Origin: Escherichia phage UGJNEcP3
Sequence record: OV876907
DNA: 64,000 bases
Strand: one strand, 5' to 3'
Position numbers and translations under genes: made by a program. Below, piece by piece: positions 1,785 through 53,599 of the stretch (position 1 is its first letter; every line of letters begins with the position of its first letter). Under the pieces are notes generated by a model. The model had not been told where the DNA came from. It did no database searches and was given only the letters and a program-made list of their open reading frames with translations.

Positions 1785-1825
1785 GGGTAATTATATCACT
1801 TCACATTTACAGCGTTAAAGGACCA
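1785..1825 (-). promoter_or_regulatory. Sigma70-type promoter with extended -10 (TGATATAAT) upstream of uvsX
   Basis: Reverse complement of about 1790-1798 is TGATATAAT; TTAACG-like -35 at 17-bp spacing. Confidence 0.5.
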
Positions 1826-2708
1826 CGTCCTCATAACTTGGCATTTCGTGCTCAGAATGGATATGGGCACCGAAATAAATGAATTCAGCTAGACCAGGAT
1901 GGAATACTAAACCAGGATTCTCGTGATAAATGATATGAGGTCTTGATTTCAGAATCTGATAATATTCAACCTTACTAGGTTTGAATTTAATAATCTCTAC
2001 ATCAGGACGATAGTCTTCACGTTTAAATGAATCATTCGGGTCGGTGATATAAAGGCGAGAACCTTCAGCTGCAGCTTGGTCTACAACTCTTTCGAATTGA
2101 TAACATTTATCAGAGATACGGAATGGATGGAAAATACCATCAATTTTAATAGGCGCTAGACCTTCAGAGTAACGCTCAATTACTGCGGGATTAATTACCT
2201 TTTGGTCTACAAAAATCTTATCAGAGGACGCACCTCGTGACACCAGGACGTCTTTCTGGCATTGATTCAGGACTGTAGTATAAATCGAACGTTCAACTGA
2301 GGACACGTCGGTATCAATAAACTCGTCGATATAATAACGAGGAACTTCAGGGTCCATTGTAATGTTAAAGTTGAATTGTACAGTCTGAGTGCCATCATAA
2401 CCTGTGATATCGGTTACTAATCCTGAGCAGTCATAGTATTCGATTAACGAATCAACAACGAACTCGTTTTCAGACCAAAAATGTTTACGAGTTTCATAAG
2501 CATTTTCTTTATACCAAAGCGGTACAAAATTCAGTTCAGGAAATAATTCAATGCATTCTTTGATATCGCTCGAATTTCTAGGATAAGCCAGATAATCACC
2601 TGGGCAAGCACGGTTTAAATGGAGTTGAAAATTACCGTCCTTAAGGACGGCATATTCACCTGTTTCGTAACTACGCATACTGAAAATAGGAACGATAAAC
2701 AGACTCAT
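1815..2708 (-). CDS. Hypothetical protein at the beta-glucosyltransferase position; candidate DNA base-modifying transferase
   Basis: 297 aa; no resemblance to T4 beta-gt as recalled; ATG overlaps the stop of the upstream TS-family gene (ATGA); last gene of the five-gene coupled operon. Confidence 0.6.
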   Translation of the reverse strand: MSLFIVPIFSMRSYETGEYAVLKDGNFQLHLNRACPGDYLAYPRNSSDIKECIELFPELNFVPLWYKENAYETRKHFWSENEFVVDSLIEYYDCSGLVTDITGYDGTQTVQFNFNITMDPEVPRYYIDEFIDTDVSSVERSIYTTVLNQCQKDVLVSRGASSDKIFVDQKVINPAVIERYSEGLAPIKIDGIFHPFRISDKCYQFERVVDQAAAEGSRLYITDPNDSFKREDYRPDVEIIKFKPSKVEYYQILKSRPHIIYHENPGLVFHPGLAEFIYFGAHIHSEHEMPSYEDVVL

Positions 2709-3403
2709 TTCAGGAATCCTCGAACATAGTCAAAATCACGTTCAAATACATGTGCACTAACCATAGTATGGGAATACGTACCCAGACCAACACCACACTG
2801 TTCAGCAATAAAGGCCATCAGTTTACCCTGCAGATAGAAATCCAGCTGCATAACGATAGCACAGTTCTGTGAACGCATATGAGTGTGTGCATACAGACGT
2901 CCATCACGAATATAATATGTCACCGAATCGGTACAAGGATATTCTAAGGATTCGTCAGAATCAAGGAGGGCTTGGTCTTGTTCTTGGAGAATCTGGAACA
3001 CAACTCTTCTTGAGTTAGGCTTCTCTTTAAGCTCTTTAAGTAAGGCTGGGAGTTGGGCCACAATTCGAGGTCCATAGAAAGTGTTGAAGTTTGCAGGCAA
3101 TACGTCACTTTTCGGCTTATCAATGAACTTAGCAACATTAGGGTATTCCTTAAATGCTTCGGCGGCGTCAGTACCACCGGAAATCATAAACTTCCAGAAA
3201 GATTCGGCATAATCATAGTTGATACGATTAATACGAGGGTCGGTGAATTTATAGGTGCTTGCATCCAGAACTTCAACTGAAGCCGAACCAATTTCATAAC
3301 AACGACCGATACGAGAATCAACTGCAAACTGTGGAGCTTCCAGGATTTCTTCGTTCATTTGTTTAAATGCATTTTCAAAACTAACAGCGGTAATGTGTTT
3401 CAT
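2705..3403 (-). CDS. 42: Thymidylate-synthase-family pyrimidine hydroxymethylase, dCMP hydroxymethylase-like (divergent)
   Basis: 232 aa; PNSRR, YPCT (candidate catalytic Cys) and MRSQNCAIVMQLD motifs align with the TS/dCMP-hydroxymethylase pattern; Asp at the position that is Asp in T4 dCH and Asn in TS; syntenic with T4 gene 42 but far more divergent than neighbouring core genes. Confidence 0.75.
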   Translation of the reverse strand: MKHITAVSFENAFKQMNEEILEAPQFAVDSRIGRCYEIGSASVEVLDASTYKFTDPRINRINYDYAESFWKFMISGGTDAAEAFKEYPNVAKFIDKPKSDVLPANFNTFYGPRIVAQLPALLKELKEKPNSRRVVFQILQEQDQALLDSDESLEYPCTDSVTYYIRDGRLYAHTHMRSQNCAIVMQLDFYLQGKLMAFIAEQCGVGLGTYSHTMVSAHVFERDFDYVRGFLK

Positions 3404-3936
3404 TTATTCACCTCATAATTAATGTATTCATTAAGACGTTTTAATTCTACCATATCGACGTTAAGCAAGTTATTATGGCCGTCGTGATTTAAGATTTTAA
3501 ACACGTTTTCAAAACATGTTTCATATTGGCGGATAGTTAGGTTGAACTCATCTTTAGTCAGTTTAATGAGGTCATCTTCAAAGTCTTTATCCAACGGATT
3601 ACGGGTTAAAATAACCTCAATGATATTGAATTCTTTTTTGAAATCAATCCAATCTGCTAGTTCTACATAAGGGTCCATTTCACCACGAAGGAATCCCGAG
3701 TAAACAATATTACTAGGATAACCACGGTCTAGGATGTAAACGAAATTAGGGTCTAAAAACTTATACAACGTCTCGACTAAAGCCTTGTCATTATCAGTTC
3801 CTAACGAAATACATTTACCATTAATCTTTTTAGGAAAATCAATAAGACGATATTTCTTATCAGATAAAAGGGTTTCGATTAAAGTAGACTTCCCGGAATT
3901 ATCCGGGCCGTCTATAACAATGATTTTTGGATTCAT
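3400..3936 (-). CDS. P-loop kinase, polynucleotide-kinase-like
   Basis: 178 aa; Walker A IVIDGPDNSGKST at the N-terminus, similar in layout to the T4 Pnk kinase domain; ATGA-coupled to neighbours on both sides. Confidence 0.7.
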   Translation of the reverse strand: MNPKIIVIDGPDNSGKSTLIETLLSDKKYRLIDFPKKINGKCISLGTDNDKALVETLYKFLDPNFVYILDRGYPSNIVYSGFLRGEMDPYVELADWIDFKKEFNIIEVILTRNPLDKDFEDDLIKLTKDEFNLTIRQYETCFENVFKILNHDGHNNLLNVDMVELKRLNEYINYEVNK

Positions 3937-4292
3937 GGATGATAGGCCTTATAACTATCAAGAGTTCCTTCGCGAACCATTTCTTTAAAGTGGTCAGGAC
4001 GAATTGCTCGGTCATCGATGATAAAAGTATAACTCGGCTTGTGTGTAAGCAAATTGTGATATTTCAATCCAATTTTTTCAAGGTTCTTAACCAATGCAGG
4101 AACTACTTCAACCAAGATTCGGCCTGGGCCGCATGAAGTCATACCACGGGCAGTGAACAATGTAATCTCATGACCTTCATCGTACAGCTTATTAATCATG
4201 GACACCATTTCGGTGTCCGGTTTAAAGTTTTCATAATCACGGTCATCTTGCCAGTGAGTAATGGTATTATCGATGTCAAAGCACAAATGCAT
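3933..4292 (-). CDS. HAD-superfamily phosphatase (Pnk-phosphatase/GmhB-like)
   Basis: Motifs FDIDNT (DxDxT), LFTAR and IIDDR; start placed at the second ATG (4290-4292), which has a GGAAGAAA Shine-Dalgarno, rather than the ORF-track start at 4307. Confidence 0.7.
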   Translation of the reverse strand: MHLCFDIDNTITHWQDDRDYENFKPDTEMVSMINKLYDEGHEITLFTARGMTSCGPGRILVEVVPALVKNLEKIGLKYHNLLTHKPSYTFIIDDRAIRPDHFKEMVREGTLDSYKAYHP

Positions 4293-5965
4293 TAAATTTT
4301 CTTCCATTGTTTGTGGAGTTCAGTAGAACCTGTAGGTTTATATTTTACACCAGTTTCCTGGTCAAGCAAAACCCACTTATCAGGGCATCGAGTGATAATT
4401 TGGGCCGTAATAGGGTCACGAACTTCATCGACAAATTCACCTGTAATAAGCTTACGCTTACGAGGATGCCGCTTCAGCAGCACACTCAGTTGATATAGAC
4501 CGTTGTAATAAGCGCCCAGAGCTTTCAGAGGGTTATTTTTAAAGTAACCTGCCAACGCCATCCAGATAACAGCAATCCAGAGCTTGTGCTTAAATGTACA
4601 CATTGGAATATCATCTAAAGGCATAACCTTTTCAATATCAACGAATACTCGAGTTCCATTACGAGTTAAGCCACCCCATAGAGGGTCAGAGTTAAATTTG
4701 TCATAACCATCGATAGAATAAAGCACCTTAGCTTCATCATAAATCGCAGGGCCTTTAGAACTATTACCAAAATAACCGCGTGGGTCGATGATTTTAATAT
4801 CACCTTCGTCCGACAGCATAATATTACTGTAGTGCGGGTCGCCGTGAATAAGTTGGTACGGTTCTTTATGTTCAGACAGAATTTCTAGTGCATGACGAAG
4901 AAGTTTTTCTGGGTCGCCTACCTTAAAGTCATTGACATGGGTAATGCCCTGTGGAGCAAAGCCTTCAATCAATCCAGCAATAGAAGCATTACGAATAAGG
5001 ACCTTGTCCAATACTTCTTTCTTAACATCGGAATACCATTGCTCATCGGATGGATTATCGATAGTTCCACCAAATGAACGTAATGCACTAATGACCTTAT
5101 AAACCATGAGGACTTTAGTTTCTTTAGACATAAACCGATAGGCATCTGCCATGGTGCGACCAAAGATACGTTCCATTTTAATGAATTCACCTGGAGCAAA
5201 GTCTACAATGCTCGGAACAAATTCAGAATCAATAGAATTATACCAATTGATTTCTTTAGATTGGATTTCTTTACCTAATTCGTTGGTAGGTACTTTAATA
5301 GCCAGATTCTCAGTGAACTCTAATTTATTAAATTCACGGTTAATTTCAGAATCTTCATGGGCCTTAGCCAGTTTCAATTTGTCACCGACATCAACTACAA
5401 AGTCCAGCTTACGTTCGGTCAAATGGACCATCGAATCTAGGTTATCAGCAAGGTCTTCGCCATAATTAGAACGGTTGAAGCCTGTCCAATTAGCCACCTG
5501 ATACAAACCAACCACACCACCGCCAGTACCAATTTCACGCAAGTACGGTTCTTCAAATGTAAAACGACAGTCAGTCCCGTAGGTATAGCAATAGTCGTTA
5601 TCCCACTCAACTTTATGACCCTCAGGAATGATGTCACACCAGTTAAACAAGACGTTATGGCCAATGATATCTTCAGCAATGCAATCGATAGCATGAGCTG
5701 AACCATTAGCCACATCTACGTTACGAATAGTGAATTTAGGCTTATCACTATTAATCATGTTAATGGATTTAATATAGCCTTTAACGAGGTCGTTAAATTT
5801 GCTGTGAATAACCAGAATAATTTCATCTGATTGGTTACTATACAAATCATACAAATGTTTTAATACAGTATGTTGTTTGTAGTTAACCAATACCTTCGGG
5901 ATTTCGTTAGTAATTGGATACAACCGTGAGCCAAGACCCGCGCCTAAAATAACAACCTTTTTCAT
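4292..5965 (-). CDS. Bifunctional sugar-phosphate nucleotidyltransferase / APH-type kinase fusion
   Basis: N-terminus KKVVILGAGLGSRLYPIT is the RmlA/GlmU-type G-x-G-x-R-L nucleotidyltransferase signature; C-terminal half has HGDPHYSNIM and IIDPRG (aminoglycoside/choline/sugar-1-kinase fold). Start trimmed to MKKVVIL (ATG 5963-5965, SD GAGGAA) because a TATAAT -10 overlaps the ORF-track start. Confidence 0.85.
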   Translation of the reverse strand: MKKVVILGAGLGSRLYPITNEIPKVLVNYKQHTVLKHLYDLYSNQSDEIILVIHSKFNDLVKGYIKSINMINSDKPKFTIRNVDVANGSAHAIDCIAEDIIGHNVLFNWCDIIPEGHKVEWDNDYCYTYGTDCRFTFEEPYLREIGTGGGVVGLYQVANWTGFNRSNYGEDLADNLDSMVHLTERKLDFVVDVGDKLKLAKAHEDSEINREFNKLEFTENLAIKVPTNELGKEIQSKEINWYNSIDSEFVPSIVDFAPGEFIKMERIFGRTMADAYRFMSKETKVLMVYKVISALRSFGGTIDNPSDEQWYSDVKKEVLDKVLIRNASIAGLIEGFAPQGITHVNDFKVGDPEKLLRHALEILSEHKEPYQLIHGDPHYSNIMLSDEGDIKIIDPRGYFGNSSKGPAIYDEAKVLYSIDGYDKFNSDPLWGGLTRNGTRVFVDIEKVMPLDDIPMCTFKHKLWIAVIWMALAGYFKNNPLKALGAYYNGLYQLSVLLKRHPRKRKLITGEFVDEVRDPITAQIITRCPDKWVLLDQETGVKYKPTGSTELHKQWKKI

Positions 5966-6025: not shown

Positions 6026-6526
6026 TTAAATCTTATCTTTACCGATTTCAATACACTGTTCTATTGCCGCCGGTACTTTGGTCTTGAGCTTATCGATTTG
6101 TTTCTTATAATCACGAGCTTTACCGAAGCTCTCGGTTTCGAGCATTTCGTAATAACGAGCCTCGTGGATGGAAATCTGTAGATTGATATGGTTTACGCAC
6201 ATCGCATACAGTTTCTGCTTTTTGTACAAATCATCTTGGCGCTTCATTTCTGCCTGGTGTTTGGCTAGTACCGCTTCACGCTTAGACTCTTGTTCACGTT
6301 GGAATTCGATTTCCCTTTGAGCATATTTTGCACAGTTATTACCACATTGATTATTAGCTCGGGTATACACAAGTCCAGAACCGGCACGGAATTTCATTTC
6401 GCCATCGAATTGTTTCTGTTCAGCTGCGATACGAGCTTTACCAACTTCATCGGCTGAAACTGCATCACCATATTGGACCGCACAACCTGATAGGAGCATA
6501 CTCATTGCGATAATTAACTTTTTCAT
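6026..6526 (-). CDS. Putative lipoprotein
   Basis: 166 aa; N-terminus MKKLIIAMSMLLSGC is a signal peptide with lipobox; SD GAGGAT upstream. Confidence 0.65.
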   Translation of the reverse strand: MKKLIIAMSMLLSGCAVQYGDAVSADEVGKARIAAEQKQFDGEMKFRAGSGLVYTRANNQCGNNCAKYAQREIEFQREQESKREAVLAKHQAEMKRQDDLYKKQKLYAMCVNHINLQISIHEARYYEMLETESFGKARDYKKQIDKLKTKVPAAIEQCIEIGKDKI

Positions 6527-13124: not shown

Positions 13125-13316
13125 TTAATCAAAGTACTCGTAGACAAACCATGCCGGATTTCTATTTGACATGATTTTATCATATTCTGACTTAAAAGCA
13201 TTTCGGAGATATTCTTCAGTAACAAGATGCTCATCTCCAGAGAAGTTGTTAACTAAAACGTATCTCTTTATTTCTGGAAAGGCCAACAAATGCTGGCCTG
13301 TTATAAAATCACTCAT
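13125..13316 (-). CDS. Hypothetical protein (45.2-like position)
   Basis: 63 aa ORF on the transcribed strand. Confidence 0.45.
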   Translation of the reverse strand: MSDFITGQHLLAFPEIKRYVLVNNFSGDEHLVTEEYLRNAFKSEYDKIMSNRNPAWFVYEYFD

Positions 13317-13999
13317 TATGAAGCATCCTTTAATTTACAATTATCAAAGTGCCATCGTTTCATAATGTTGTTAGAGCCAATTTTATCACAATATGGGCAC
13401 TTTACAGTTGGTCTGCTTTTAGCTTTTGCAGATTGTTTGCTTTTCATAGCCTGTTTTGCTTCGTCAGACCTAGAATTAAGGGCTATAGAAATTTTATCCC
13501 TTGTTTCTTGGCTATGAGTTTTTCCGAACATAGGGTTGTTCTCAGGCAAATATGTACCATTTCTTATATTACTCTGACGAATTTTTTCTATATGTTCTTT
13601 AGATTTATTTCTTAGCTCTAGGCATTTAGATTTCTTTCTAGTTTTAAAAAGGTTTTCATAAAATGAATACGGTCTATTTTTAGCAGCTATACTCTGTTTA
13701 AGTCTGGTTTCCTCTTTTATAAAAGGTGCGGCATTACCTCCTAAAGAAATATTATATGTAAGAGGGTTCTTTATAAATTCCTCATTGACTATAATTCTTT
13801 CCATTTGGATAGCCTCTTCTCTGGTATCAAAATTATAAAGTATTTCCTTTCTATGATTTTCCAAACCATATTTTTTAATAGAAGCTTTAATATATAAACC
13901 AGAGCCCATATACGAATCTTTAATATTTTCAGTACTATGTATCCCTACATAGTACTTATTATTAACTAAATTTATTATTTTGTAAACAAGATGTCTCAT
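13316..13999 (-). CDS. GIY-YIG homing endonuclease (Seg-like)
   Basis: 227 aa; N-terminal YKIINLVNNKYYVGIHS...GSG GIY-YIG signature, basic C-terminal DNA-binding region with CPYC; AT-rich gene inserted between 45.2 and 46. Confidence 0.85.
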   Translation of the reverse strand: MRHLVYKIINLVNNKYYVGIHSTENIKDSYMGSGLYIKASIKKYGLENHRKEILYNFDTREEAIQMERIIVNEEFIKNPLTYNISLGGNAAPFIKEETRLKQSIAAKNRPYSFYENLFKTRKKSKCLELRNKSKEHIEKIRQSNIRNGTYLPENNPMFGKTHSQETRDKISIALNSRSDEAKQAMKSKQSAKAKSRPTVKCPYCDKIGSNNIMKRWHFDNCKLKDAS

Positions 14000-15681
14000 T
14001 ATTCTAATACTGTAAAGCGGCCAACCTTCTTCATTTGTAAATGTTGTCCATACGATTGTGGGTCATGGTCTTTGTGTGAAATTATAAAGACATTAGAATC
14101 TTCCAAAGAATTTATAATATTTGATACACCTTTAATACCTTCTGCATCAAAACTTCCATCAAAGACCTCATCAAGAATAAGAGTAGATATATTAATGCCT
14201 GAAACCTTTGAAGCAATATCTCGCCAGGTAAATAACAGAGCCACATCTATTCTAGACTTTTCACCTTCACTAAATGAAGCATAACTAAAGTCTTCGCGTC
14301 CACGCGACTTAATCGTCTCATTGAACTCTTCGTCAAGAGAAAAACTATAATCCGCCTCTAACATCTTCAAATAAGAATTTATTTGCTTATTAAAGATAGG
14401 AATGTATTTCTTAATAATGGAACCTTTAATACCAGTGTCCTTCAACATTTCTGTCAGAATTCCACGGTGATATTTTTCCATTACCAATGACGATTTGGTA
14501 GAGACGATTTTATCAAGCTCTGCTTGAAGCGTGGCAATCTCTTCGGCATTACTTACGAACTCTGCAGCCGCTTGGTCAATTAATACTTTAACCTTTTTAG
14601 CTTTCTCGACAGCAGTAATGGCTTGCTGCTTATGAGTAGCTATCTGAGATTTAATAGCCAGCGCTTTATTACGTTGCTCGGTTACTTGGTCTTTAATAAG
14701 TTTGAGCTCTTGGTACTGCTCATTAATCTTATCCAAAGATTTTTGAAGCTCAAAGTTCTTATCCTTAATTTTAGTAAGGATGTTCCCATGTTCTTCCAAT
14801 CCTTGCATACATGTAGGGCAGTGACCACCTGTTTCGTATAACTTAACCACCTTTGTAAAGGTTGCCATATCATTTTTGATTGCAAACCCTTTATTACTCA
14901 GGTCACTCATGGAGTCGCTAGGGTCATCATCTACGATAACATTGAGTAATTCATCAGTCAGGAATTCTATGCTCGCTTTCGCAGTCCTGGCTTCTTTAAC
15001 GAGCTCATCATACATTAATTGTAGTCGTGCCGCATTCTCGCCGGATAATTTACGCTGACGCTCTTCGTTGTCATTATAAATTTTAATTTGCTGGGTAATA
15101 GAATCCTGTTTAACGTCTATCACCTGGATTTGGCTATTAGTCTCACGAATCAAAGATTTGTTCAACTTATCCATATCCGCTAATACAGAAACCTCTAAAA
15201 GGTCTTCCACCAGCTTTCGACGCGCTGGGGTTGACAAACCCATGAAGGGGGTATACCCTGCCGTGCCAAGAACGACAATCTGTTTGAAGCTTGCATAGGA
15301 CATTCCGATAAGCTGTTCAAATTCTGCTTGGAAGTCTTTACTGCTGGCAGATTCATCAAGACGTTCACCGCCACAAGAGATTTCAAAAACGTTCGGTTTT
15401 TGTCCGCGTTTGATATAGTATTCTTTGCCATCGTATTCCATCCACAGTTCGACCAAAAGGTCTTTCTTGTTACTTGAGTTAATCAACTGCCCTTTCTTAA
15501 CATCACGAAAAGGCTTACCGAACAGAGCAAATGTTACAGCTTCAAGGAATGTTGATTTCCCTGCACCATTTTTACCAGTGACTAAGGTCTTTTGGACCTT
15601 ATCAAGTTGGATTGTAATGGGCTGCTGCCCGACCGACATAATATTTTTATACGTTACTTTCTTTAACTTAAAAGTCTTCAT
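13999..15681 (-). CDS. 46: Recombination endonuclease subunit gp46 (SbcC/Rad50-like)
   Basis: Start trimmed to MKTFKLKKVTYKNIMSVGQ; Walker A GKNGAGKST; close match to T4 gp46. Confidence 0.93.
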   Translation of the reverse strand: MKTFKLKKVTYKNIMSVGQQPITIQLDKVQKTLVTGKNGAGKSTFLEAVTFALFGKPFRDVKKGQLINSSNKKDLLVELWMEYDGKEYYIKRGQKPNVFEISCGGERLDESASSKDFQAEFEQLIGMSYASFKQIVVLGTAGYTPFMGLSTPARRKLVEDLLEVSVLADMDKLNKSLIRETNSQIQVIDVKQDSITQQIKIYNDNEERQRKLSGENAARLQLMYDELVKEARTAKASIEFLTDELLNVIVDDDPSDSMSDLSNKGFAIKNDMATFTKVVKLYETGGHCPTCMQGLEEHGNILTKIKDKNFELQKSLDKINEQYQELKLIKDQVTEQRNKALAIKSQIATHKQQAITAVEKAKKVKVLIDQAAAEFVSNAEEIATLQAELDKIVSTKSSLVMEKYHRGILTEMLKDTGIKGSIIKKYIPIFNKQINSYLKMLEADYSFSLDEEFNETIKSRGREDFSYASFSEGEKSRIDVALLFTWRDIASKVSGINISTLILDEVFDGSFDAEGIKGVSNIINSLEDSNVFIISHKDHDPQSYGQHLQMKKVGRFTVLE

Positions 15682-15931
15682 CGTTATAAGCATCCTTGAT
15701 GCATGATTCAGCCATATGAATTAATGTTTCTGGAGTATCATCTACCATTACATTAAAGCTAAATTCTACAGCCCAATCGGTAGCAACATAAACTTTAATA
15801 AGCTCGCCGGTATCACGAGTGCTCACGGCTTCAAACCAGAACTTAATTGTACTAGGTTGACCATCATCATCAATAACTATACAGTCGTGTTCCAGTTCAA
15901 GTCCCGATTTTTTGAATTCATCTAAAGTCAT
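15668..15931 (-). CDS. Hypothetical protein between 47 and 46
   Basis: 87 aa ORF overlapping both neighbours by a few bases. Confidence 0.45.
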   Translation of the reverse strand: MTLDEFKKSGLELEHDCIVIDDDGQPSTIKFWFEAVSTRDTGELIKVYVATDWAVEFSFNVMVDDTPETLIHMAESCIKDAYNDEDF

Positions 15932-16950
15932 CGTGTAACCTCATTATAAAGTTGTGCAGCCATAGTCTTAAGGGCTTTAACATCGGCTTCAGTGTGGCCA
16001 TCAGGAAGGGCATCGATATAATCATACATCATATCCAAGAGGGATTTAACTTCGTCTTCCTCTTCAGAATCATCAATATCAACACTATTATCTACCTTAG
16101 ACACAATACGTAAAGAGTGAACAACCTTTTCAAGCTCTGATTCGAACTTAGTAAGACCGTCATCGATTTTATCGACTATAACACGAACTGCGATATTTGT
16201 AAAATCTTTGTAATCGATAGTCTCGTTAGGATAATGAATCTTACGATGCCAACAGGTTTCATTAATGATGAAATCCATTTTATGAGTTTCGGTATCGAAA
16301 ATCCAGAAACCACGAGGGTCGTTCTCATCGCCTGCAGTAAGGGTCCATGGCGTACCAATGTACTTGACGTTTGCTGCATCAGAAATGGTGTGGAAGTGGC
16401 CAGACCATACTTGCTTATACTTCTTAAGGAAATCAGGTTCTAAACCATGTGATTTCATTCCTTTATAGAAATAGAAACCATTTAATTCCCAGTGGCCAAT
16501 ACAGAAATCTGCCGTGGTATTTTTGATATGGTCCATGATATCAGTGGTGTTTTCTTCACACATCCATGGAATCAAATCAATTTCGGTGCCATCAAAGTTA
16601 ACCGTAGTAGGTTTCTCAATAACCTTGATATGGTCATATTTACCCAGAACTTCAGAAGCTGCGTTCGGCGTCAGGGTATTTTTGTAGTGGGCATCATGGT
16701 TACCAACGACCGTATACATGGTAATGCCACTTTCTTTAAGCAAATCAGAGATTTCGCGAGCGAATTCCATACACTTATGGGTAATTGCTTTACGAACGTC
16801 AAAGATATCACCGTATTGAATCCACACGGTAATACCATTTGCTTTAGAATAATTGATAGCGTCTTGGATACCTTGACGTTGGATATTTTGTACCCACACA
16901 TCATCGGCCTTCACTCCAAGGTGCCAGTCACCTGTGTTTAATATTTTCAT
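15928..16950 (-). CDS. 47: Recombination endonuclease subunit gp47 (SbcD/Mre11-like)
   Basis: Start trimmed to MKILNTGDWHLG (the ORF-track start is a TTG extension); phosphoesterase motifs GDWH, GNHD. Confidence 0.93.
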   Translation of the reverse strand: MKILNTGDWHLGVKADDVWVQNIQRQGIQDAINYSKANGITVWIQYGDIFDVRKAITHKCMEFAREISDLLKESGITMYTVVGNHDAHYKNTLTPNAASEVLGKYDHIKVIEKPTTVNFDGTEIDLIPWMCEENTTDIMDHIKNTTADFCIGHWELNGFYFYKGMKSHGLEPDFLKKYKQVWSGHFHTISDAANVKYIGTPWTLTAGDENDPRGFWIFDTETHKMDFIINETCWHRKIHYPNETIDYKDFTNIAVRVIVDKIDDGLTKFESELEKVVHSLRIVSKVDNSVDIDDSEEEDEVKSLLDMMYDYIDALPDGHTEADVKALKTMAAQLYNEVTR

Positions 16951-17090
16951 AAGCCGAGCACCGTTATCGCAATGCAAAATAAAATTATTGAGATGAACCC
17001 ATCAGGAGTAGAAAAGAATCCTATCCAACAGGCTCGTGTGAATGTGTAGAATGCCATGAATAACACGACATATCCTAAAAGTAATTCCAT
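16947..17090 (-). CDS. Small hydrophobic protein upstream of 47
   Basis: 47 aa ORF found by hand (MELLLGYVVLFMAFYTFTRACWIGFFSTPDGFISIILFCIAITVLGL); SD GAGGAG; stop overlaps the gene 47 ATG (ATGA). Confidence 0.35.
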   Translation of the reverse strand: MELLLGYVVLFMAFYTFTRACWIGFFSTPDGFISIILFCIAITVLGL

Positions 17091-17133
17091 ATGTTCTCCT
17101 CAGTTGGTTCATTTTATCATCCGAATATAAAGC

Positions 17134-17155
17134 AAAAAAGGAGCCTAAGCTCCTT
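17134..17155 (-). terminator. Intrinsic terminator
   Basis: Minus strand GGAGC-TTAG-GCTCC followed by TTTTTT. Confidence 0.6.
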
Positions 17156-17318
17156 TACCAATTAATACGCCATACAGAGGTTCATGAGAAGACCTGAACT
17201 TGATAGGCTTATAGGTAATAGTACCTTCATTTTCCGCTTTAATACGAGCAGCTTCAAATTTAAGTATCATCTCATTTTTGTCAGATTTAATCTTATCAAA
17301 ATCCATCGAATTCGTCAT
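17142..17318 (-). CDS. Hypothetical small protein
   Basis: 58 aa ORF found by hand with SD AAGAGG; stop lies inside the terminator hairpin at about 17134-17155. Confidence 0.3.
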
Positions 17319-17590
17319 TCATAAAACCTCTTAAACTTTTTCGTATTCGTCATTCATAGCTTAAAAATCTGGATGTTCGTCTTTCATTAGCCACCTGTCC
17401 ATGTTATCATCGTTGCCACCACTTCTTAAGTTGATGTGAATCCACCCAAACCTTGGCTACAGGCTCAATCCGAAAAATTTCATCGGAATACTGCCCAACC
17501 ATTTTATATTCGGTTTCAGTCTGCTTAATACAAATATTACCGTATGAGCGAAGTCTGAAGGCGGCTCCAATAAGAAGCCGTTTAAAGGGT

Positions 17591-17902
17591 TTATTTACTA
17601 GCGCCATTGATAATTTCCCAAATCTGTTTACGCGTAGTTTCCCACATAACTCTAACGATTTCGTCAGTAGTTGGTTGACGGTAAATACCACGTAATTTAA
17701 TTATAGCATATTTGTAAGCTTCGAAATTGTTTTCGAGAACAGCGCCCTGAGCATGTGTATTAAGACGCTTAATTTCACGGGCATTCTTTTTAAGAATTTT
17801 GGCAGCTTGGGAAGCGGCTTCTTTAGCATTATTCTCTTCTAAACGCTTCTGGGCTTCTTCAATTTGCTCTTCGGTCAATTGAGAAATGTCGGTGCTTTGC
17901 AT
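17591..17902 (-). CDS. Hypothetical protein
   Basis: 103 aa ORF on the transcribed strand, charged and helical. Confidence 0.5.
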   Translation of the reverse strand: MQSTDISQLTEEQIEEAQKRLEENNAKEAASQAAKILKKNAREIKRLNTHAQGAVLENNFEAYKYAIIKLRGIYRQPTTDEIVRVMWETTRKQIWEIINGASK

Positions 17903-17903
17903 A

Positions 17904-18131
17904 TTAATCCTTGTAATTCAGTTTTATATAAAAATCTTCGTCGGTAACGTGATAGTTATAAGTTAATGTTCCTTTTTCAGCTTTAATTTCTACCGAATCA
18001 GGGTGTTTTGGGTCTATTACAATAGGAAGCTTGGCAATATCCTTAAGATACATTTTAAGAACATAAGGAATTGCCGAATACTCTCCATCTACTTCTTCTA
18101 AAAGGCCTACCAGGTTAATCTTGAGTTCCAT
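17904..18131 (-). CDS. Hypothetical protein
   Basis: Trimmed to first ATG ([11 protein letters not shown]); overlaps the gene 55 3' end by 17 nt. Confidence 0.4.
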
Positions 18132-18672
18132 ATAAAAAATCCAGCTCACCAACTTTAGATTCGGCGCTCTTATCAGACCCTGGCGCTTTAACTAAAGAGG
18201 TTTCATACTGAGTCATTTTGTCGTAAATATCCTGGATAAAAGTTTCATCTGCGATACCTACCATGTCGTCGTCATTGGCGTCATAAACGTTATGGACGAA
18301 GTAGCTGTATTTCTTTGCCATTTCTTTACGTTCTTTCTTGATACGCTGAACAAAGGCATTAAAACAAGCCATAGTGATATATGCATGTGGGTTGTCGTAT
18401 TTTGTTTCGTCGAAGTTATGAAGACCTTTAATAGAGGCTTCGATTCCATCAGCAATCATTTCTTGCTTCCAAGATTGGGTATATCCGGAGAAGTTGAAAC
18501 GCTTAGAAAGGCCTTCAGCAATGAGCATAATAGCCAAGCCGATAACGTCGTTCTGACGAACTATTTTATTAGGGTCGGTATTTTCTCGGAGTTCTGTTTT
18601 CCACTGGGTAATGGCTTTCAGAAGCTCCTTATTATTTACATAGTTATTTTTAGTCAGTTTAATTTCGGTCAT
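18115..18672 (-). CDS. 55: Late-transcription sigma factor gp55
   Basis: 185 aa; long identical stretches to T4 gp55 ([48 protein letters not shown]). Confidence 0.95.
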
Positions 18673-18738
18673 TGTTACCTCAGATAACTCAAATCATAGG
18701 TCTATTATATCATAGTATTTGGAGACCCGTTTAAAGCA

Positions 18739-19002
18739 TCAACGGAGTAAGCAATAAGCCTGAAATACTGTTTCAAGGATTTGTATGAACTCGGGATAAG
18801 AAATTGTATCAGTACATCCATGTTCGGACATATATCCGCAAAATTCTTTAAAAAGTTCCGGATAATCCCGATGGTTGTATTTGGAAATACGAGACTTCCA
18901 TACTAAAGAAGTCTCACCACAAACAAACTCAACATCCATACAGTTATCTATTAAGAAAAATCCGAGACCTTCATAAGCGAGGGTGGTGGATATGGGTTTC
19001 AT
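18739..19002 (-). CDS. Hypothetical protein
   Basis: 87 aa ORF. Confidence 0.45.
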   Translation of the reverse strand: MKPISTTLAYEGLGFFLIDNCMDVEFVCGETSLVWKSRISKYNHRDYPELFKEFCGYMSEHGCTDTISYPEFIQILETVFQAYCLLR

Positions 19003-19265
19003 TGTAGGAATCGAGCTCCTTCTAATGCATCATCAAGATTATCAAACTCATCGACGTAATCAATACCGCCAACTTCATCTTTAGCGTATAGCCAGTACCG
19101 TTTAAATTCATATTCGATAATAAAGTGGTCACCTTCAATCTGGAGAGCCCCATCACCATTAAATTGGACTGCATAACCTGTAAAGCGGACATCATTCAGG
19201 AGTTCTTCTTTCATAGCAATCATTTCCAAGTTTTTATCGTAATTAGAGAGTTTTATTTTAATCAT
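18999..19265 (-). CDS. Hypothetical protein
   Basis: 88 aa ORF, 4-nt overlap with neighbour. Confidence 0.45.
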   Translation of the reverse strand: MIKIKLSNYDKNLEMIAMKEELLNDVRFTGYAVQFNGDGALQIEGDHFIIEYEFKRYWLYAKDEVGGIDYVDEFDNLDDALEGARFLQ

Positions 19266-19506
19266 TTAAATAATCCTCAAATTCATTTAATGTCATGCCT
19301 TCATCCCAAGCTATTTTAGGATCCGGCATTTTCATATAAGTGGTCTTAGAGCTTATAGGAAATATCCTAAAATCGCGATGACTTCCACTTAGCATATTAG
19401 CCGCTTTTATAATGGTTTCACTATTATTCATCATAGGGGTACGTTGGAAACCGGCTAAAGCTTTAAGGACTATTATAACCGATACATCTTCAGGCAAATT
19501 ACTCAT
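19258..19506 (-). CDS. Hypothetical protein
   Basis: 82 aa ORF. Confidence 0.45.
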   Translation of the reverse strand: MSNLPEDVSVIIVLKALAGFQRTPMMNNSETIIKAANMLSGSHRDFRIFPISSKTTYMKMPDPKIAWDEGMTLNEFEDYLND

Positions 19507-19832
19507 TTAGCTGCCTTAACAATTTTCAGGTCAACGAATTTTTTCTTACGTTGATTCTTCATACGACGGATGGTTTTGTCTGTGATTTCACCTGGCTGCC
19601 AAGCTTTAGATTCGACACCAAAGGCGGCCACATCAAACTCGTCGAGAATATATTGAACCAGGATTTCACGAATACCGTTCTTACCAATTTTTTGGTCTTT
19701 AGAGTGCATGATTGGTAACAGTTCAGCAACCCATTGGTCAAGAACCTGAGGAGTTACAAAGCCAGTTTTCATCAGTTCATTAACTTTATCGAAAGCGAAA
19801 GAGTTCAGTACGTTTTTAATAGCTTGTGACAT
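19503..19832 (-). CDS. Hypothetical protein
   Basis: 109 aa ORF, basic C-terminus. Confidence 0.5.
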   Translation of the reverse strand: MSQAIKNVLNSFAFDKVNELMKTGFVTPQVLDQWVAELLPIMHSKDQKIGKNGIREILVQYILDEFDVAAFGVESKAWQPGEITDKTIRRMKNQRKKKFVDLKIVKAAK

Positions 19833-19901
19833 AATAATTTCCTCAGTTTAAAAATTTATAATCCGTAGGACCATTATACTCTGGTCCCAAGAGTTTGTAA
19901 A

Positions 19902-20102
19902 CTATTTTTGTGCTAATGCACCTTTCCAACCTTCATACATCATTGCGGCTGATATTAATATTGCTCCTGCGCATTTTGAATATTTGTTATTCCAAAACCA
20001 GTTTAGAAAAACTTCGTCATCAATACCTTGAGCTATCATATTTTCAAAGAACTGACGACGGGCTTCAGCAATTCGTTGTGATAATTTAGATTCAGGATTC
20101 AT
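19902..20102 (-). CDS. Hypothetical protein
   Basis: 66 aa ORF. Confidence 0.4.
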   Translation of the reverse strand: MNPESKLSQRIAEARRQFFENMIAQGIDDEVFLNWFWNNKYSKCAGAILISAAMMYEGWKGALAQK

Positions 20103-20234
20103 TTAAATTTTCCAGTTGCCGTTTTCATCAATAAATTTAATCCAGTCATTTACTGACCACTTAGTCGTATCGCCTTTTGGAGTAACATTTAAAGTGTATA
20201 ATCCTTGTTTAAAAAGCATACGTTTGATATTCAT
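20103..20234 (-). CDS. Hypothetical small protein
   Basis: Trimmed to the internal ATG (MNIKRMLF) with SD GAGGAAAA; this removes the overlap with 20242..20535. Confidence 0.35.
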   Translation of the reverse strand: MNIKRMLFKQGLYTLNVTPKGDTTKWSVNDWIKFIDENGNWKI

Positions 20235-20241
20235 ATTTTCC

Positions 20242-20535
20242 TCAGCTGTAACGATAGCATTCGTTTGATTTACGTTTTGCAACTCGATGAGAAGTATTGT
20301 AATCGGGTTCATCGTCGCTGTAAACATCTTTTTTCAGTTTTCTCACTTCTTTACGAAGTTGGCGGTTCATTTCATTCTTAACTTCAGAATCAACGCCGCT
20401 AAAGCGTTTCCATTTATCTGACCGGAAGATATTTTCATTCAAAGTTTCTTCCGATACGCCATCAGGTGCTTTACGTCTAGCAATGCAATTAAAATCTCTA
20501 GATGGCAATTCTTTACGACGGATAGTTTTACCCAT
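20242..20535 (-). CDS. Hypothetical basic protein
   Basis: 97 aa, Lys/Arg-rich. Confidence 0.45.
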   Translation of the reverse strand: MGKTIRRKELPSRDFNCIARRKAPDGVSEETLNENIFRSDKWKRFSGVDSEVKNEMNRQLRKEVRKLKKDVYSDDEPDYNTSHRVAKRKSNECYRYS

Positions 20536-20537
20536 AG

Positions 20538-20792
20538 TTACCTCAACAGTTTGTATCCAATAAGGTTTTTAATGTACTGGATGTCTTTGATATCCAAATC
20601 CAACTTAAGGTCTTTCAGACGGTCGGCCAGGGTCAAAAAGGTTACATGCTTCCAATTCTTAACAGGACAGCAATAAGTCTTAGGACCATTTGCAATTTCA
20701 ATATTCTTATCAGTGACGGTGAGAAAAATTAGGCGCTCATCATCCAGATTAAGGGTGATGACATTTTTCATTGAATGCAATTTCAGGCTCAT
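20538..20792 (-). CDS. Hypothetical protein
   Basis: 84 aa ORF. Confidence 0.45.
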   Translation of the reverse strand: MSLKLHSMKNVITLNLDDERLIFLTVTDKNIEIANGPKTYCCPVKNWKHVTFLTLADRLKDLKLDLDIKDIQYIKNLIGYKLLR

Positions 20793-20965
20793 AATTTAAT
20801 TTCCTTAGCTATCGAACAAAATACACCACGGTCACAAATCATTTTAATATTAAGGTCAATTATGGTATACCACACGTCTAGGCTAGATATTTCAGTTACT
20901 AGAACAGCTTTGCCGTTGATTGAATAATACTGGTTGACTTTAATTTCTTTATCTTGGATAGTCAT
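20789..20965 (-). CDS. Hypothetical small protein
   Basis: About 58 aa ORF found by hand (MTIQDKEIKVNQYYSING); SD GAGGAG; stop overlaps the next ATG. Confidence 0.35.
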   Translation of the reverse strand: MTIQDKEIKVNQYYSINGKAVLVTEISSLDVWYTIIDLNIKMICDRGVFCSIAKEIKL

Positions 20966-21024
20966 AATGTTCTCCTCATGTGTTGATAGGATAGACTATA
21001 ACACGTGAGGAGAGGAAGTAAACA

Positions 21025-21348
21025 CTAATCTTCAATTAAATCTCGGTCATAGCCAAGCTCAATCAAAAGGGATTTGAAGGCAGGAATATTTTCTATTTTC
21101 TTATTATCAACAAAGATTACAGGATAGCGTATAGCTAAGCTCTTGAAGCCGGCACGTTTGGCCAATGATACTATAAGAGGCTTGTCATATACTGCGCCTG
21201 ACGGCGTCTGGTTAATCACAGGATAGAAAGTATGTGGGATAGAAAGGGAATTTAGGAGCGATAGAACTGCAATGCACCCTGGACAGCGCATGACTGCCTC
21301 AGGGATACCGTAAATCTCAATTTTAGTTAACTTTTGGTCCACAGGAAA
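21025..21348 (-). CDS. nrdH: Glutaredoxin-like protein (NrdH-like)
   Basis: CPGC redox motif after KIEIYGIP; start placed at a GTG with AAGGAG 9 nt upstream, because the ORF-track extension overlaps the upstream gene. Confidence 0.6.
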   Translation of the reverse strand, partial: FPVDQKLTKIEIYGIPEAVMRCPGCIAVLSLLNSLSIPHTFYPVINQTPSGAVYDKPLIVSLAKRAGFKSLAIRYPVIFVDNKKIENIPAFKSLLIELGYDRDLIED

Positions 21349-21619
21349 TAACTCCTTGGTAGTCCCAAGTTTTGATAACTTCGTCTTCATTAGTTCCGTA
21401 TGGGACGTAAATCTGGATAAGGAAACCCGTGTCATCAAAAGAGAAATAAACCGTTGGTTTAATACCATGAATCTCTGACAGAGCATAGATGTCCTTAAGG
21501 TCGTCTTCCTTACCTTTAAAGAATTCAGGGTTCAGGTCACAGTCATGGAAGTACCAGTCATTACCGAACTTGTCCCATGCGGTCCAATTCAAAGCTACAT
21601 ACTCTTCAAAACGTTTCAT
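21323..21619 (-). CDS. Hypothetical protein
   Basis: 98 aa ORF. Confidence 0.5.
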   Translation of the reverse strand: MKRFEEYVALNWTAWDKFGNDWYFHDCDLNPEFFKGKEDDLKDIYALSEIHGIKPTVYFSFDDTGFLIQIYVPYGTNEDEVIKTWDYQGVISCGPKVN

Positions 21620-21843
21620 TCTTTCACCTTCATCATTTTAGAAATAACACTATGAACAGCCTGGATTCGTTTGTCGAACTCAGTCCCTTCAAGACCCTTT
21701 TCAGTACTCAATGCACCAATAATAACGAACAGCACTCCAAATGGGATAACCAGGATTAAAAGGCACACAATAAACAGGACAAATGTAATATTGGCCAGGA
21801 TATCAGAAGCAGCATTACGAAATTTATTCATACGATAGTCCAT
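21616..21843 (-). CDS. Hypothetical membrane protein
   Basis: 75 aa with one long hydrophobic segment. Confidence 0.45.
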   Translation of the reverse strand: MDYRMNKFRNAASDILANITFVLFIVCLLILVIPFGVLFVIIGALSTEKGLEGTEFDKRIQAVHSVISKMMKVKE

Positions 21844-21937
21844 GTATTAGTTACAACAAATAACCATTGAGCAGGATACTCAACACCCATGCGCCGGATA
21901 ATATCGTTCATAGATTCGGTTAAGGCATAAAAATTAA

Positions 21938-22411
21938 TCATTTAAGCGATTTCCTCAGTTGTTTTTTAAATGAATCGACCATTTGTTTCTTTGTGTCAGA
22001 TTCATTATAAGTCATTCCGTGTGAAAGCATTTCAGCAATCATTTCTTCCTTACCTAATCTACTGAACTCTTTGGTTTTATCAGGAACGAAATTAGGATGG
22101 ATATTGTTTTCAGTATAATCAGATTTCAGATAGACAAGCAAATTCTCTAACCATTCGAGGTAGTCAACGTTTTGACCTTTAAGACCAGAGCGGTTAAACT
22201 TATGCTTCATTTGTCCTTCTGCGGCATTACACAGGTTGCATAGTAACCCACGAACCTTACCAGCTTTTGGCCCGTTTAATTCGTGGTCATGGTCAAGGTG
22301 GTTGCTTTGAACATCAGGGTTTAATTCACGGGTACAGATTAAACACTTACCATCCTGTGCATCATAAAGTTTTTGTTTTTCTTCTTTGTATAATTTACCA
22401 GTCAACAACAT
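21938..22411 (-). CDS. 49: Endonuclease VII (Holliday-junction resolvase) gp49
   Basis: 157 aa; MLLTGKLYKEEKQKLYDAQDGKCLICTRELNPDVQSNHLDHDHELNGPKAGKVRGLLCNLCN is near-identical to T4 endo VII as recalled. Confidence 0.95.
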   Translation of the reverse strand: MLLTGKLYKEEKQKLYDAQDGKCLICTRELNPDVQSNHLDHDHELNGPKAGKVRGLLCNLCNAAEGQMKHKFNRSGLKGQNVDYLEWLENLLVYLKSDYTENNIHPNFVPDKTKEFSRLGKEEMIAEMLSHGMTYNESDTKKQMVDSFKKQLRKSLK

Positions 22412-52837: not shown

Positions 52838-52845
<8 letters not shown>

Positions 52846-53599
52846 TTTTATTTCCTAATAATTTATCAATAGTAGTGTATAGTTCAGAAAGAGTGCCGTT
52901 ATTTTCAACAACAACGTCACCAGGTAAAATTGGTAGACCCGCTTCAGTGATGTGCGAGTCTTGTACTTGACCGGTTTCAGCGCGAACTACATGAATAATC
53001 GTAGCACCCATCGCTCTGAGTGAATCAATTTCGTGTGTTTGACGAACATCAGGTACGACATAGTATTTCGCATCAGAGTATATTTTATCAAAATAGTCTA
53101 AAGCGAACAACTTAACCCAATACATCTTATCAAATTGGTTAACAATAATATCAGTCCCAAGGGTCTGCATGAGACGACGTACTGACCAATTGTTATTTTT
53201 ATTTATTACTTCAAATAGCTGGTCTTTTGTTTCTTCAGACAGATATTGGACCGGGGTAAGACCGTAATGATATGCGGTAAGAACATCAATTCCTGGAATA
53301 GGAAGGATATTATTCAGTTTAACAATAGCATGTTCAAAAATATCAACCACATCATACGGTTTTAAAGGAAGGGTTTCTTCACGGTCGTAACCGATACCTT
53401 CAAAACAATTAAAATCAAGTTTAGGCATATAGCTACGGTCGAATACAGGGTCATCAGATATGTATTCATAAGCTTCAGCCAGATACTTTTTAATAGGACC
53501 AGCGAGTTGGAATTTTACGGAATCCATATTCTCAATTACATAGTTAGCAACGGTATCCTTACCGCTACGTTTGATTCCTACAATTGATATTAGTTTCAT
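52838..53599 (-). CDS. 1: Deoxynucleoside monophosphate kinase gp1
   Basis: 253 aa; P-loop GIKRSGKDT and WSVRRLMQTLGTD...MYWVKLFALDY...MGATIIHVVR match T4 gp1. Confidence 0.93.

Follow-up and report, generated by a model that had tools for sequence, protein, structure and literature searches.

An unoccupied alpha-glucosyltransferase slot between genes 47 and 55 of a JS98-like Dhakavirus and a predicted arabinose modification of its DNA

Results and Discussion

An ordinary T4-type block without alpha-gt

Phage T4 carries its alpha-glucosyltransferase gene (alpha-gt or a-gt) between genes 47 and 55, as we confirmed on NC_000866. We analysed the corresponding interval in a stretch of phage DNA of 64,000 bases, hereafter the window, which is 100% identical to positions 23229-87228 of OV877765.1 (Escherichia phage UGJNEcP4, a JS98-like Dhakavirus). 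Here the interval measures 1,164 base pairs (bp) and contains no alpha-gt, in line with the roughly 1.1 kb reported by a first-pass annotation of the window. We consider it highly probable that the interval is an ordinary T4-type block with an unoccupied slot, and that an alternative hypermodification of cytosine, with arabinose, makes a glucosyltransferase needless. Alpha-gt would then be absent between 47 and 55 because the DNA almost certainly carries arabinose on 5-hydroxycytosine, by way of genes elsewhere in the window. The first-pass annotation had likewise concluded that the modification is not glucose. That conclusion holds, mostly through the signature of the gene 42 homologue, a transferase of the GT-B fold and a set of sugar-activation genes; the empty slot on its own is weak evidence for it.

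Every feature of the 47-55 region lies on the minus strand. By megablast, window positions 15900-18700 are 100% identical to UGJNEcP4 and 98-99% identical to JS98, JS10, IME281 and other Dhakaviruses. The gene layout of T4 was read from NC_000866 and the annotation of the JS98 interval from EF469154. The interval runs from the start of gene 47 (16950) to the end of gene 55 (18115); it and its borders hold the following genes (aa, amino acids; nt, nucleotides; gp, gene product).

15928..16950, minus strand: gene 47, left border, for an SbcD/Mre11-like recombination nuclease subunit; present in the annotations of OV877765.1 and JS98, 72.5% nt identity to T4 gene 47
16947..17090, minus strand: gene 47.1, a predicted membrane protein of 47 aa; 80% to T4 gp47.1 (tblastn E = 1e-20, window 16950-17084), phrog_6693, annotated in JS98
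17145..17318, minus strand: gene a-gt.2, 57 aa, DUF5486 (Pfam E = 1.9e-20); 47% to T4 a-gt.2 (tblastn, window 17157-17387)
17407..17607, minus strand: gene a-gt.3, 66 aa; 45% to T4 a-gt.3 (tblastn E = 4e-14, window 17413-17601), phrog_1648
17591..17902, minus strand: gene a-gt.4, 103 aa, DUF2654 (Pfam E = 1e-24); 43% to T4 a-gt.4 (tblastn, window 17594-17893)
17904..18131, minus strand: gene a-gt.5, 75 aa, DUF5491 (Pfam E = 1e-18); 51% to T4 a-gt.5 (tblastn, window 17919-18131)
18115..18672, minus strand: gene 55 (late sigma factor), right border; from the annotation

The five open reading frames (ORFs) inside the interval are 47, 57, 66, 103 and 75 aa long, with alternative starts that make the third 94 aa and the fifth 82 aa. 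The first-pass annotation had their sizes right (47-103 aa) and undervalued them as only small ORFs. All five have homologues in T4 (tblastn E about 1e-14 to 1e-21) and are, by this similarity, evidently the conserved T4 genes 47.1, a-gt.2, a-gt.3, a-gt.4 and a-gt.5 and no filler. No glycosyltransferase family in Pfam or PHROGs is matched by any of the five, and a literature search for what a-gt.2 to a-gt.5 or 47.1 do was without result. The T4 order is 47, 47.1, a-gt, mobB, a-gt.2, a-gt.3, a-gt.4, a-gt.5, 55 (NC_000866). Compared with it, the flanking small genes are all kept here in equal order, and only two genes are absent, a-gt and mobB, which encodes an HNH homing endonuclease.

T4-type glucosyltransferases in the complete genome

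Whole-genome searches were run on the complete 170,590-bp OV877765.1 genome, with tblastn and with phmmer; the latter was used with all filters off (--max) against the 449 stop-to-stop ORFs of at least 80 aa. The genome contains no homologue of T4 a-gt (about 400 aa; best E = 0.055 over 36 aa by tblastn and 0.099 by phmmer) or of T4 b-gt (about 351 aa; best E = 4.3 and 0.55, respectively). Neither enzyme, which the first-pass annotation had proposed to look for outside the window, was therefore found anywhere in the genome. RB69 gp3 has no homologue in it either (best E = 1.6 by tblastn and 0.22 by phmmer), and no product in the OV877765.1 record is annotated as a glycosyltransferase. The genome is not, however, free of GT-B proteins. 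At the syntenic position of T4 b-gt, which would be between gene 42 and uvsX, stands a GT-B protein of 297 aa (window 1815-2708) without sequence relation to T4 b-gt.

A predicted arabinosylation module

The 297-aa protein belongs to a module homologous to the cytosine-arabinosylation cluster of RB69. The module occupies window 1815-5965, between uvsX and the DNA polymerase gene. Its genes are listed with gene 1, which lies apart from them (dCMP, deoxycytidine monophosphate; dNMP, deoxynucleoside monophosphate; UDP, uridine diphosphate).

1815..2708, minus strand: 297-aa GT-B glycosyltransferase, predicted DNA arabinosyltransferase; a single uninterrupted ORF, 64% to RB69 gp46 and 69% to RB69 gp47
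2705..3403, minus strand: gene 42 homologue, predicted 5-hydroxy-dCMP synthase; 79% to RB69 gp48, 25% to T4 gp42, Pfam Thymidylat_synt
3400..3936, minus strand: thymidylate-kinase-like nucleotide kinase; 37% to RB69 gp45 (E = 4e-30), phrog_761
3933..4292, minus strand: HAD-type phosphatase of 119 aa, published analogue HY126 AfhF; 61% to RB69 gp51 (E = 8e-55), weak Pfam match to Hydrolase_3
4292..5965, minus strand: nucleotidyltransferase and kinase of 557 aa, published analogue HY126 AfhE; 41-44% to RB69 gp52:53, predicted to act in UDP-arabinose synthesis
52838..53599, minus strand: gene 1, dNMP kinase; from the OV877765.1 annotation at 76066-76827

The residues of the gene 42 homologue were read from an alignment with E. 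coli ThyA, the phage's own Td, T4 gp42 and RB69 gp48. In E. coli ThyA numbering it carries L143E, D169N and N177D, and the catalytic C146 is conserved; T4 gp42, unlike it, has Asp at residue 169. It thereby combines all features of the 5-hydroxy-dCMP synthase signature (thymidylate-synthase fold, Cys146, N177D, L143D/E and D169N). The product of RB69 gp48 is 5-hydroxy-dCMP and not 5-hydroxymethyl-dCMP, a flavin-dependent hydroxylation of dCMP with O2 that has been demonstrated for RB69 gp48 and for the HY126 enzyme (PMC13326640). Moreover, D169N has been proposed as diagnostic of such synthases, and 9/9 D169N homologues then tested gave 5-hydroxydeoxycytidine (5hodC) (PMC13326640). The homologue also matches PDB 9iqu/9iqc (E = 1.5e-125), which we take to be the synthase of phage HY126, given that 9iqz is the HY126 glycosyltransferase and that the isomerase genes of HY126 and RB69 are almost the same. 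From the D169N signature we predict that the sugar-bearing base is 5-hydroxycytosine, not hydroxymethylcytosine.

The transferase gene adjoins the gene 42 homologue, at the position of beta-gt in T4. A sequencing error has split one RB69 gene into gp46 and gp47, and its product has been proposed as the first arabinosyltransferase, although arabinosyl transfer by gp46:47 itself is still put forward as a hypothesis (PMC13326640). The 297-aa protein has no Pfam match, a PDB sequence search gave noise alone, and its PHROG is one of unknown function. Its AlphaFold2 model, built on an alignment of 36 homologues, reached a pLDDT of 94.5 and a pTM of 0.89. The modelled chain has the two Rossmann-like domains of a GT-B fold, an identification that comes only through fold comparison. 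Judged by this model the genome does hold one GT-B enzyme, which is no sequence homologue of either T4 glucosyltransferase. In sequence and in position the protein corresponds to arabinosyltransferase 1, the RB69 gp46:47 type, and we predict that it puts arabinofuranose (Araf) from UDP-Araf on 5-hydroxycytosine in DNA.

The 557-aa protein has two Pfam domains, an N-terminal NTP_transferase (residues 3-100) and a C-terminal, aminoglycoside-kinase-like APH (residues 346-417). Such a bifunctional protein and a HAD phosphatase make up the pair for UDP-arabinose synthesis, and both members are present; in HY126, AfhE and AfhF make UDP-arabinose from arabinose 5-phosphate (PMC13326640). The genome also contains gene 56 (dCTPase), gene 1, denB and alc, the usual cytosine-exclusion apparatus. 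The role of the gene 1 dNMP kinase is to bring modified dCMP to the diphosphate (PMC13326640).

We hypothesise a route of four steps. The gene 42 paralogue would make 5-hydroxy-dCMP in place of 5-hydroxymethyl-dCMP. The phage dNMP kinase and host kinases would carry this to the triphosphate, for incorporation by the polymerase. The bifunctional kinase/nucleotidyltransferase and the HAD phosphatase would turn arabinose 5-phosphate into UDP-arabinofuranose, from which the single GT-B transferase would add one arabinose to the 5-hydroxyl in DNA.

Cytosine might instead be hydroxylated or hydroxymethylated without a sugar, host restriction being met by other means. Petrov et al. put this forward in 2010 as their first alternative for JS98 and RB69 and left it open (PMC2993671). 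It would agree with the lack of a recognisable glycosyltransferase family match in Pfam or PHROGs. Nevertheless, we regard it as extremely unlikely, since a confident GT-B protein, 64-69% identical to the enzyme of RB69, whose DNA is arabinosylated, adjoins the gene 42 homologue, and a sugar-nucleotide synthesis pair stands beside the GT-B gene. Very improbable, too, is glucosylation of the DNA by the 297-aa protein as a divergent GT-B enzyme fed with host UDP-glucose, in which case alpha-gt and beta-gt would have been replaced rather than made unnecessary. As the host supplies UDP-glucose, the adjoining sugar-activation genes would be pointless for it; the kinase/nucleotidyltransferase and phosphatase are RB69 homologues, and their HY126 analogues make UDP-arabinose (PMC13326640). 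RB69, the closest characterised relative, carries arabinose, and the acceptor base is predicted to be 5-hydroxycytosine, both of which argue against glucose.

The predicted arabinose module is a reduced one. No homologue of the RB69 arabinose-5-phosphate isomerase (gp55), of gp50 (U32-peptidase-like) or of gp49 was found in the genome by tblastn or phmmer. A profile of the transferase family gave one match among the genome ORFs (E = 2e-135), the next best being at E = 0.35. Given the lack of a second transferase of the RB69 gp3 or HY126 9iqz type, which a di-arabinosyl product would require, the predicted product is mono-arabinosyl-5-hydroxycytosine. E. coli possesses the arabinose-5-phosphate isomerases KdsD/GutQ, and because the phage has no isomerase of its own we expect arabinose 5-phosphate to come from these host enzymes; the dependence of the phage on them is an assumption. 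No Dhakavirus name was recognised in a sample of 60/276 isomerase-bearing phage records.

Several points weigh against arabinosylation. Gene content, signature residues and fold come directly from this analysis; all of the pathway chemistry, for this phage as for Dhakavirus, would follow by homology to RB69 and HY126. The sugar specificity of the GT-B enzyme is not readable from sequence or fold. The module is smaller than that of RB69, and its kinase/nucleotidyltransferase is just 41-44% identical to the RB69 enzyme. It is also possible that a very divergent second transferase lies among the ORFs of unknown function, beyond the reach of sequence searches. Five of the large nrdC-region ORFs whose function is unknown or uncertain were considered as a hidden second transferase and rejected: they have T4 homologues (20-83% identity), which makes modification enzymes specific to this group unlikely. 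Two other large ORFs, of 229 aa and 319 aa, have no homologue within the T4 or RB69 stretches searched.

The empty slot and its terminator/promoter cassette

The position of alpha-gt in T4 corresponds here to a short gap between a-gt.2 and 47.1, in which a terminator hairpin and a promoter-like site are found.

17091..17144, minus strand: empty slot of 54 nt where T4 has a-gt and mobB (about 2.1 kb); break in T4 homology
17137..17156, minus strand: intrinsic-terminator hairpin with a U tract after it, the hairpin overlapping the stop codon of a-gt.2; terminator scan, fold -12.1 kcal/mol, z = -2.7 against shuffles
17111..17134, minus strand: MotA-box middle-promoter-like site, TGCTTTA (TTTGCTTTA), 11 nt, TAAAAT, upstream of 47.1/47; pattern match, putative promoter

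In the nucleotide alignment to T4, window 16800-17083 corresponds to 47/47.1 and window 17126-17258 to the 3′ end of a-gt.2, with a-gt and mobB skipped. The hairpin bears out the terminator that the first-pass annotation had placed in the interval. At E of at most 1, Rfam returned only a meaningless partial match, on this hairpin. The MotA-box site stands directly after the hairpin. Its general pattern (TGCTTNA, 11-13 nt, TANNNT) is matched at 14 sites in the window, with 3.4 expected; these sites are mainly on the minus strand, ahead of early and middle genes.

This cassette of hairpin and MotA box occurs once in UGJNEcP4 and in RB69 and twice in T4. The T4 copies (14586-14624 and 16681-16731 of the T4 stretch examined) lie one after a-gt.2 before mobB and the other after a-gt before 47.1, as a direct repeat flanking a-gt and mobB. 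The hairpin stem of RB69 has another sequence (GGAACTC/GAGTTCC) with the pairing retained, and the MotA-box motif again follows the hairpin. Among close relatives the slot is variably occupied. In IME08 an ORF of 205 aa replaces 47.1 (1036-1653 of the stretch examined) and has, by eye, a GIY-YIG-like N-terminal motif; we rejected it as a relative of mobB, a-gt or 47.1, as it shows no similarity to the T4 versions. In QL01 an ORF beneath the aligned region carries the annotation of an HNH endonuclease, whilst dhabil and dhaeg have the slot without an insert and without 47.1 (1052-1108 of the stretches examined). By these comparisons the slot is evidently a hotspot of recombination and homing, and the data suggest that the cassette mediates gain or loss of the a-gt and mobB module.

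The direction of change was considered in this light. An ancestor might have had alpha-gt, which the Dhakavirus lineage then lost through recombination between two hairpin/MotA-box cassettes; the alternative is gain by the T-even phages. The direct repeat on both sides of a-gt and mobB in T4 speaks for a loss. Furthermore, the hairpin and MotA box of the single cassette here resemble those of the left T4 copy, and its -10 region resembles that of the right one, which fits a cross-over between the two copies. A duplication of the cassette upon insertion of the module would, however, give the same pattern, RB69 (a Mosigvirus) carries the same single cassette, and alpha-gt is reported solely in T-even type phages (PMC2993671). 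Loss is therefore doubtful in our estimation. The variable occupation of the slot in close relatives favours repeated insertion at a hotspot. We lean towards gain of a-gt by the T-even phages at an ancestrally empty site, on account of the confinement of alpha-gt to T-even type phages (PMC2993671) and of the single cassette common to two other genera.

A homing endonuclease gene is also annotated directly downstream of gene 46 (window 13316-13999, minus strand), between 46 and a 45.2-like ORF. JS98 was reported in 2010 without homing endonuclease genes.

A chain of micro-ORFs between a-gt.3 and a-gt.2

The first-pass annotation had noticed a triple repeat of 34 bp in the interval. The repeat is real, with ATGAANGACGAA present three times. 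A regular 34-bp period is not, the spacing being 35 and 30 nt. On the coding strand the repeat is a chain of three micro-ORFs in the 88-nt spacer between a-gt.3 and a-gt.2.

17296..17402, minus strand: chain of three micro-ORFs (the "triple repeat"); from the reading frames on the coding strand
17361-17387, minus strand: MKDEHPDF-stop, with a 13-codon version to 17402; ATG GAC AGG TGG CTA ATG AAA GAC GAA CAT CCA GAT TTT TAA
17331-17357, minus strand: MNDEYEKV-stop; 3 nt after the MKDEHPDF stop
17296-17322, minus strand: MNDEFDGF-stop; preceded by a GAGG Shine-Dalgarno sequence, overlaps the a-gt.2 start

The MKDEHPDF frame opens 1 nt past the a-gt.3 stop codons, and its 13-codon version from the first ATG reads [MDRWL]MKDEHPDF. 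At the other end the a-gt.2 start codon begins at the fifth base of the MNDEFDGF frame, in the +1 frame. Copies 1 and 2 (17289-17323 and 17324-17358) are 74% identical with a period of 35. The third copy is recognisable only in the register of the start codons (53-61% identity, against 14-17% in the 35-nt register), because it is displaced by 30 and not 35 nt. For the core 12-mer ATGAANGACGAA, 0.07 occurrences would be expected in the 64-kb window; there are three, and all of them fall within one 77-nt stretch. The repeat is not due to chance. Tandem Repeats Finder scored no array in the region.

The MKDEHPDF unit matches the N-terminus of T4 a-gt.2 (VKDEHP; MVATVKDEHPTSEID...). In T4 the KDEHP peptide is in frame within a-gt.2, a-gt.3 and a-gt.2 overlap and the 88-nt spacer is missing, whilst RB69 has one overlapping upstream frame, MHDERPDL-stop. 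From the match of the first unit we conclude that the array in all likelihood arose through tandem duplication of the 5′ end of a-gt.2.

We compared the array across 26 Dhaka- and Gaprivervirus sequences; a metagenome scan anchored on a-gt.2 gave just two relevant contigs. Three units are found in UGJNEcP4, JS98, IME281, CLB_P2, MN04, C6, Mizar and VR25. ABTNLsp5, ABTNLS3, WG01, IME08, QL01 and IME341 have a hybrid A/B unit and C, and units A and C occur in VR5, dhabil and two further sequences. In TH55, dhaeg and one metagenome contig (L026) there are longer ORFs that retain the DEHPDF-stop end. Every unit is an open 8-codon frame with start and stop in 26/26 sequences. Third codon positions account for 8 of 10-11 variable sites (binomial p about 0.003-0.009, for sites that are non-independent and extraction patterns that constrain the variation visible). 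The 4 nt between Shine-Dalgarno sequence and ATG vary freely, unlike the frames.

These data bear on two explanations. The triple repeat may be a non-functional scar, in which the first 30-35 nt of a-gt.2, including the start codon, were duplicated and unequal recombination changed the copy number. The T4 match of the first unit fits this, as do relatives with 2 or 3 units, including an A/B hybrid as expected from a cross-over inside the shared GACGAA core. On the other hand, a scar would not readily explain why all units are open in 26 sequences, why variable sites are mostly third codon positions, why the frames are constrained and the 4 nt ahead of the ATG are not, or why DEHPDF-stop is retained as the end of longer ORFs (TH55, dhaeg, L026). 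Alternatively, the micro-ORFs could be translated and kept open by selection, either for a ribosome relay or upstream-ORF control of a-gt.2 or as acidic, aromatic-ended peptides with a function of their own; unit number may, on this explanation too, change by unequal recombination among Dhaka- and Gaprivervirus. We think the scar slightly the better bet and translation unlikely, and hence rank the neutral duplication scar as somewhat more likely than translated micro-ORFs.

We considered whether a programmed +1 frameshift at UUU-UGA might fuse MNDEFDGF with the rest of a-gt.2, and rejected it. Homology to T4 a-gt.2 begins at the second codon of the annotated frame, and RB69 has the same overlap with no slippery site.

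Neighbouring genes

One further ORF separates the arabinose module from imm, the gene for superinfection immunity.

6026..6526, minus strand: 166-aa ORF whose product has conserved cysteines and the signal peptide of a lipoprotein (lipobox LLSGC); from an alignment

We dropped it as a candidate substitute for the isomerase, as it is a lipoprotein (lipobox LLSGC) adjoining imm. Our searches gave only 11 homologues of it, and it is perhaps a further exclusion protein.

The anaerobic ribonucleotide reductase genes nrdD and nrdG, which T4 has between genes 55 and 49, are without a homologue in the whole genome. The corresponding region here (window 18700-22400) holds only small ORFs and a thioredoxin-like gene.

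Comparison with known systems

That JS98 and RB69 have genes 42 and 56 and no glucosyltransferase genes was described by Petrov et al. in 2010, who asked about another modification (PMC2993671). Thomas et al. in 2018 detected arabinose in the DNA of RB69 and pointed out that IME08 has a homologue of its nucleotidyltransferase (PMC6024577). In 2026, RB69 DNA was reported to contain mono- and di-arabinosyl-5-hydroxycytosine, the base being revised to 5-hydroxycytosine, and Dhakaviruses were named among the predicted producers of 5hodC (PMC13326640). Missing glucosyltransferase genes and a predicted non-glucose modification in Dhakavirus are thus published knowledge, and the first-pass annotation is on this point correct but ordinary. 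The reduced module with one transferase, the slot bounded by the cassette and the variable micro-ORF chain upstream of a-gt.2 may go beyond what has been published.

The type of hypermodification decides which restriction, CRISPR and type IV defences a therapeutic phage evades and which enzymes can be used to cut or sequence its DNA. Placing the Dhakaviruses in the arabinosyl-5-hydroxycytosine group, as earlier publications have already inferred, is therefore useful, although it adds no new principle. The reduced module gives a testable prediction, a mono-arabinosyl product depending on host KdsD/GutQ.

Within the interval, JS98 has the same gene order (47, 47.1, a-gt.2, a-gt.3, a-gt.4, a-gt.5, 55) at 98% nt identity over 15900-18700. 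There is no difference of substance, 47.1 merely lacking an annotation in the UGJNEcP4 record. RB69 has the same block, with 47.1 again not annotated, and its alpha-gt slot is likewise empty. As for the module, the homologous genes of RB69 and HY126 (Mosigvirus) likewise all lie between uvsX and the polymerase gene, in an order that is not the same. RB69 differs in having the isomerase gp55, gp50, gp49 and the second transferase gp3, and the predicted product here is accordingly mono- instead of di-arabinosyl. For a one-sugar product there is a precedent in the Shewanella phage Thanatos, a distant member of the Straboviridae likened here by its published description, in which a single arabinosyltransferase stands beside the 5-hydroxy-dCMP synthase (PMC12838424, PMC13326640).

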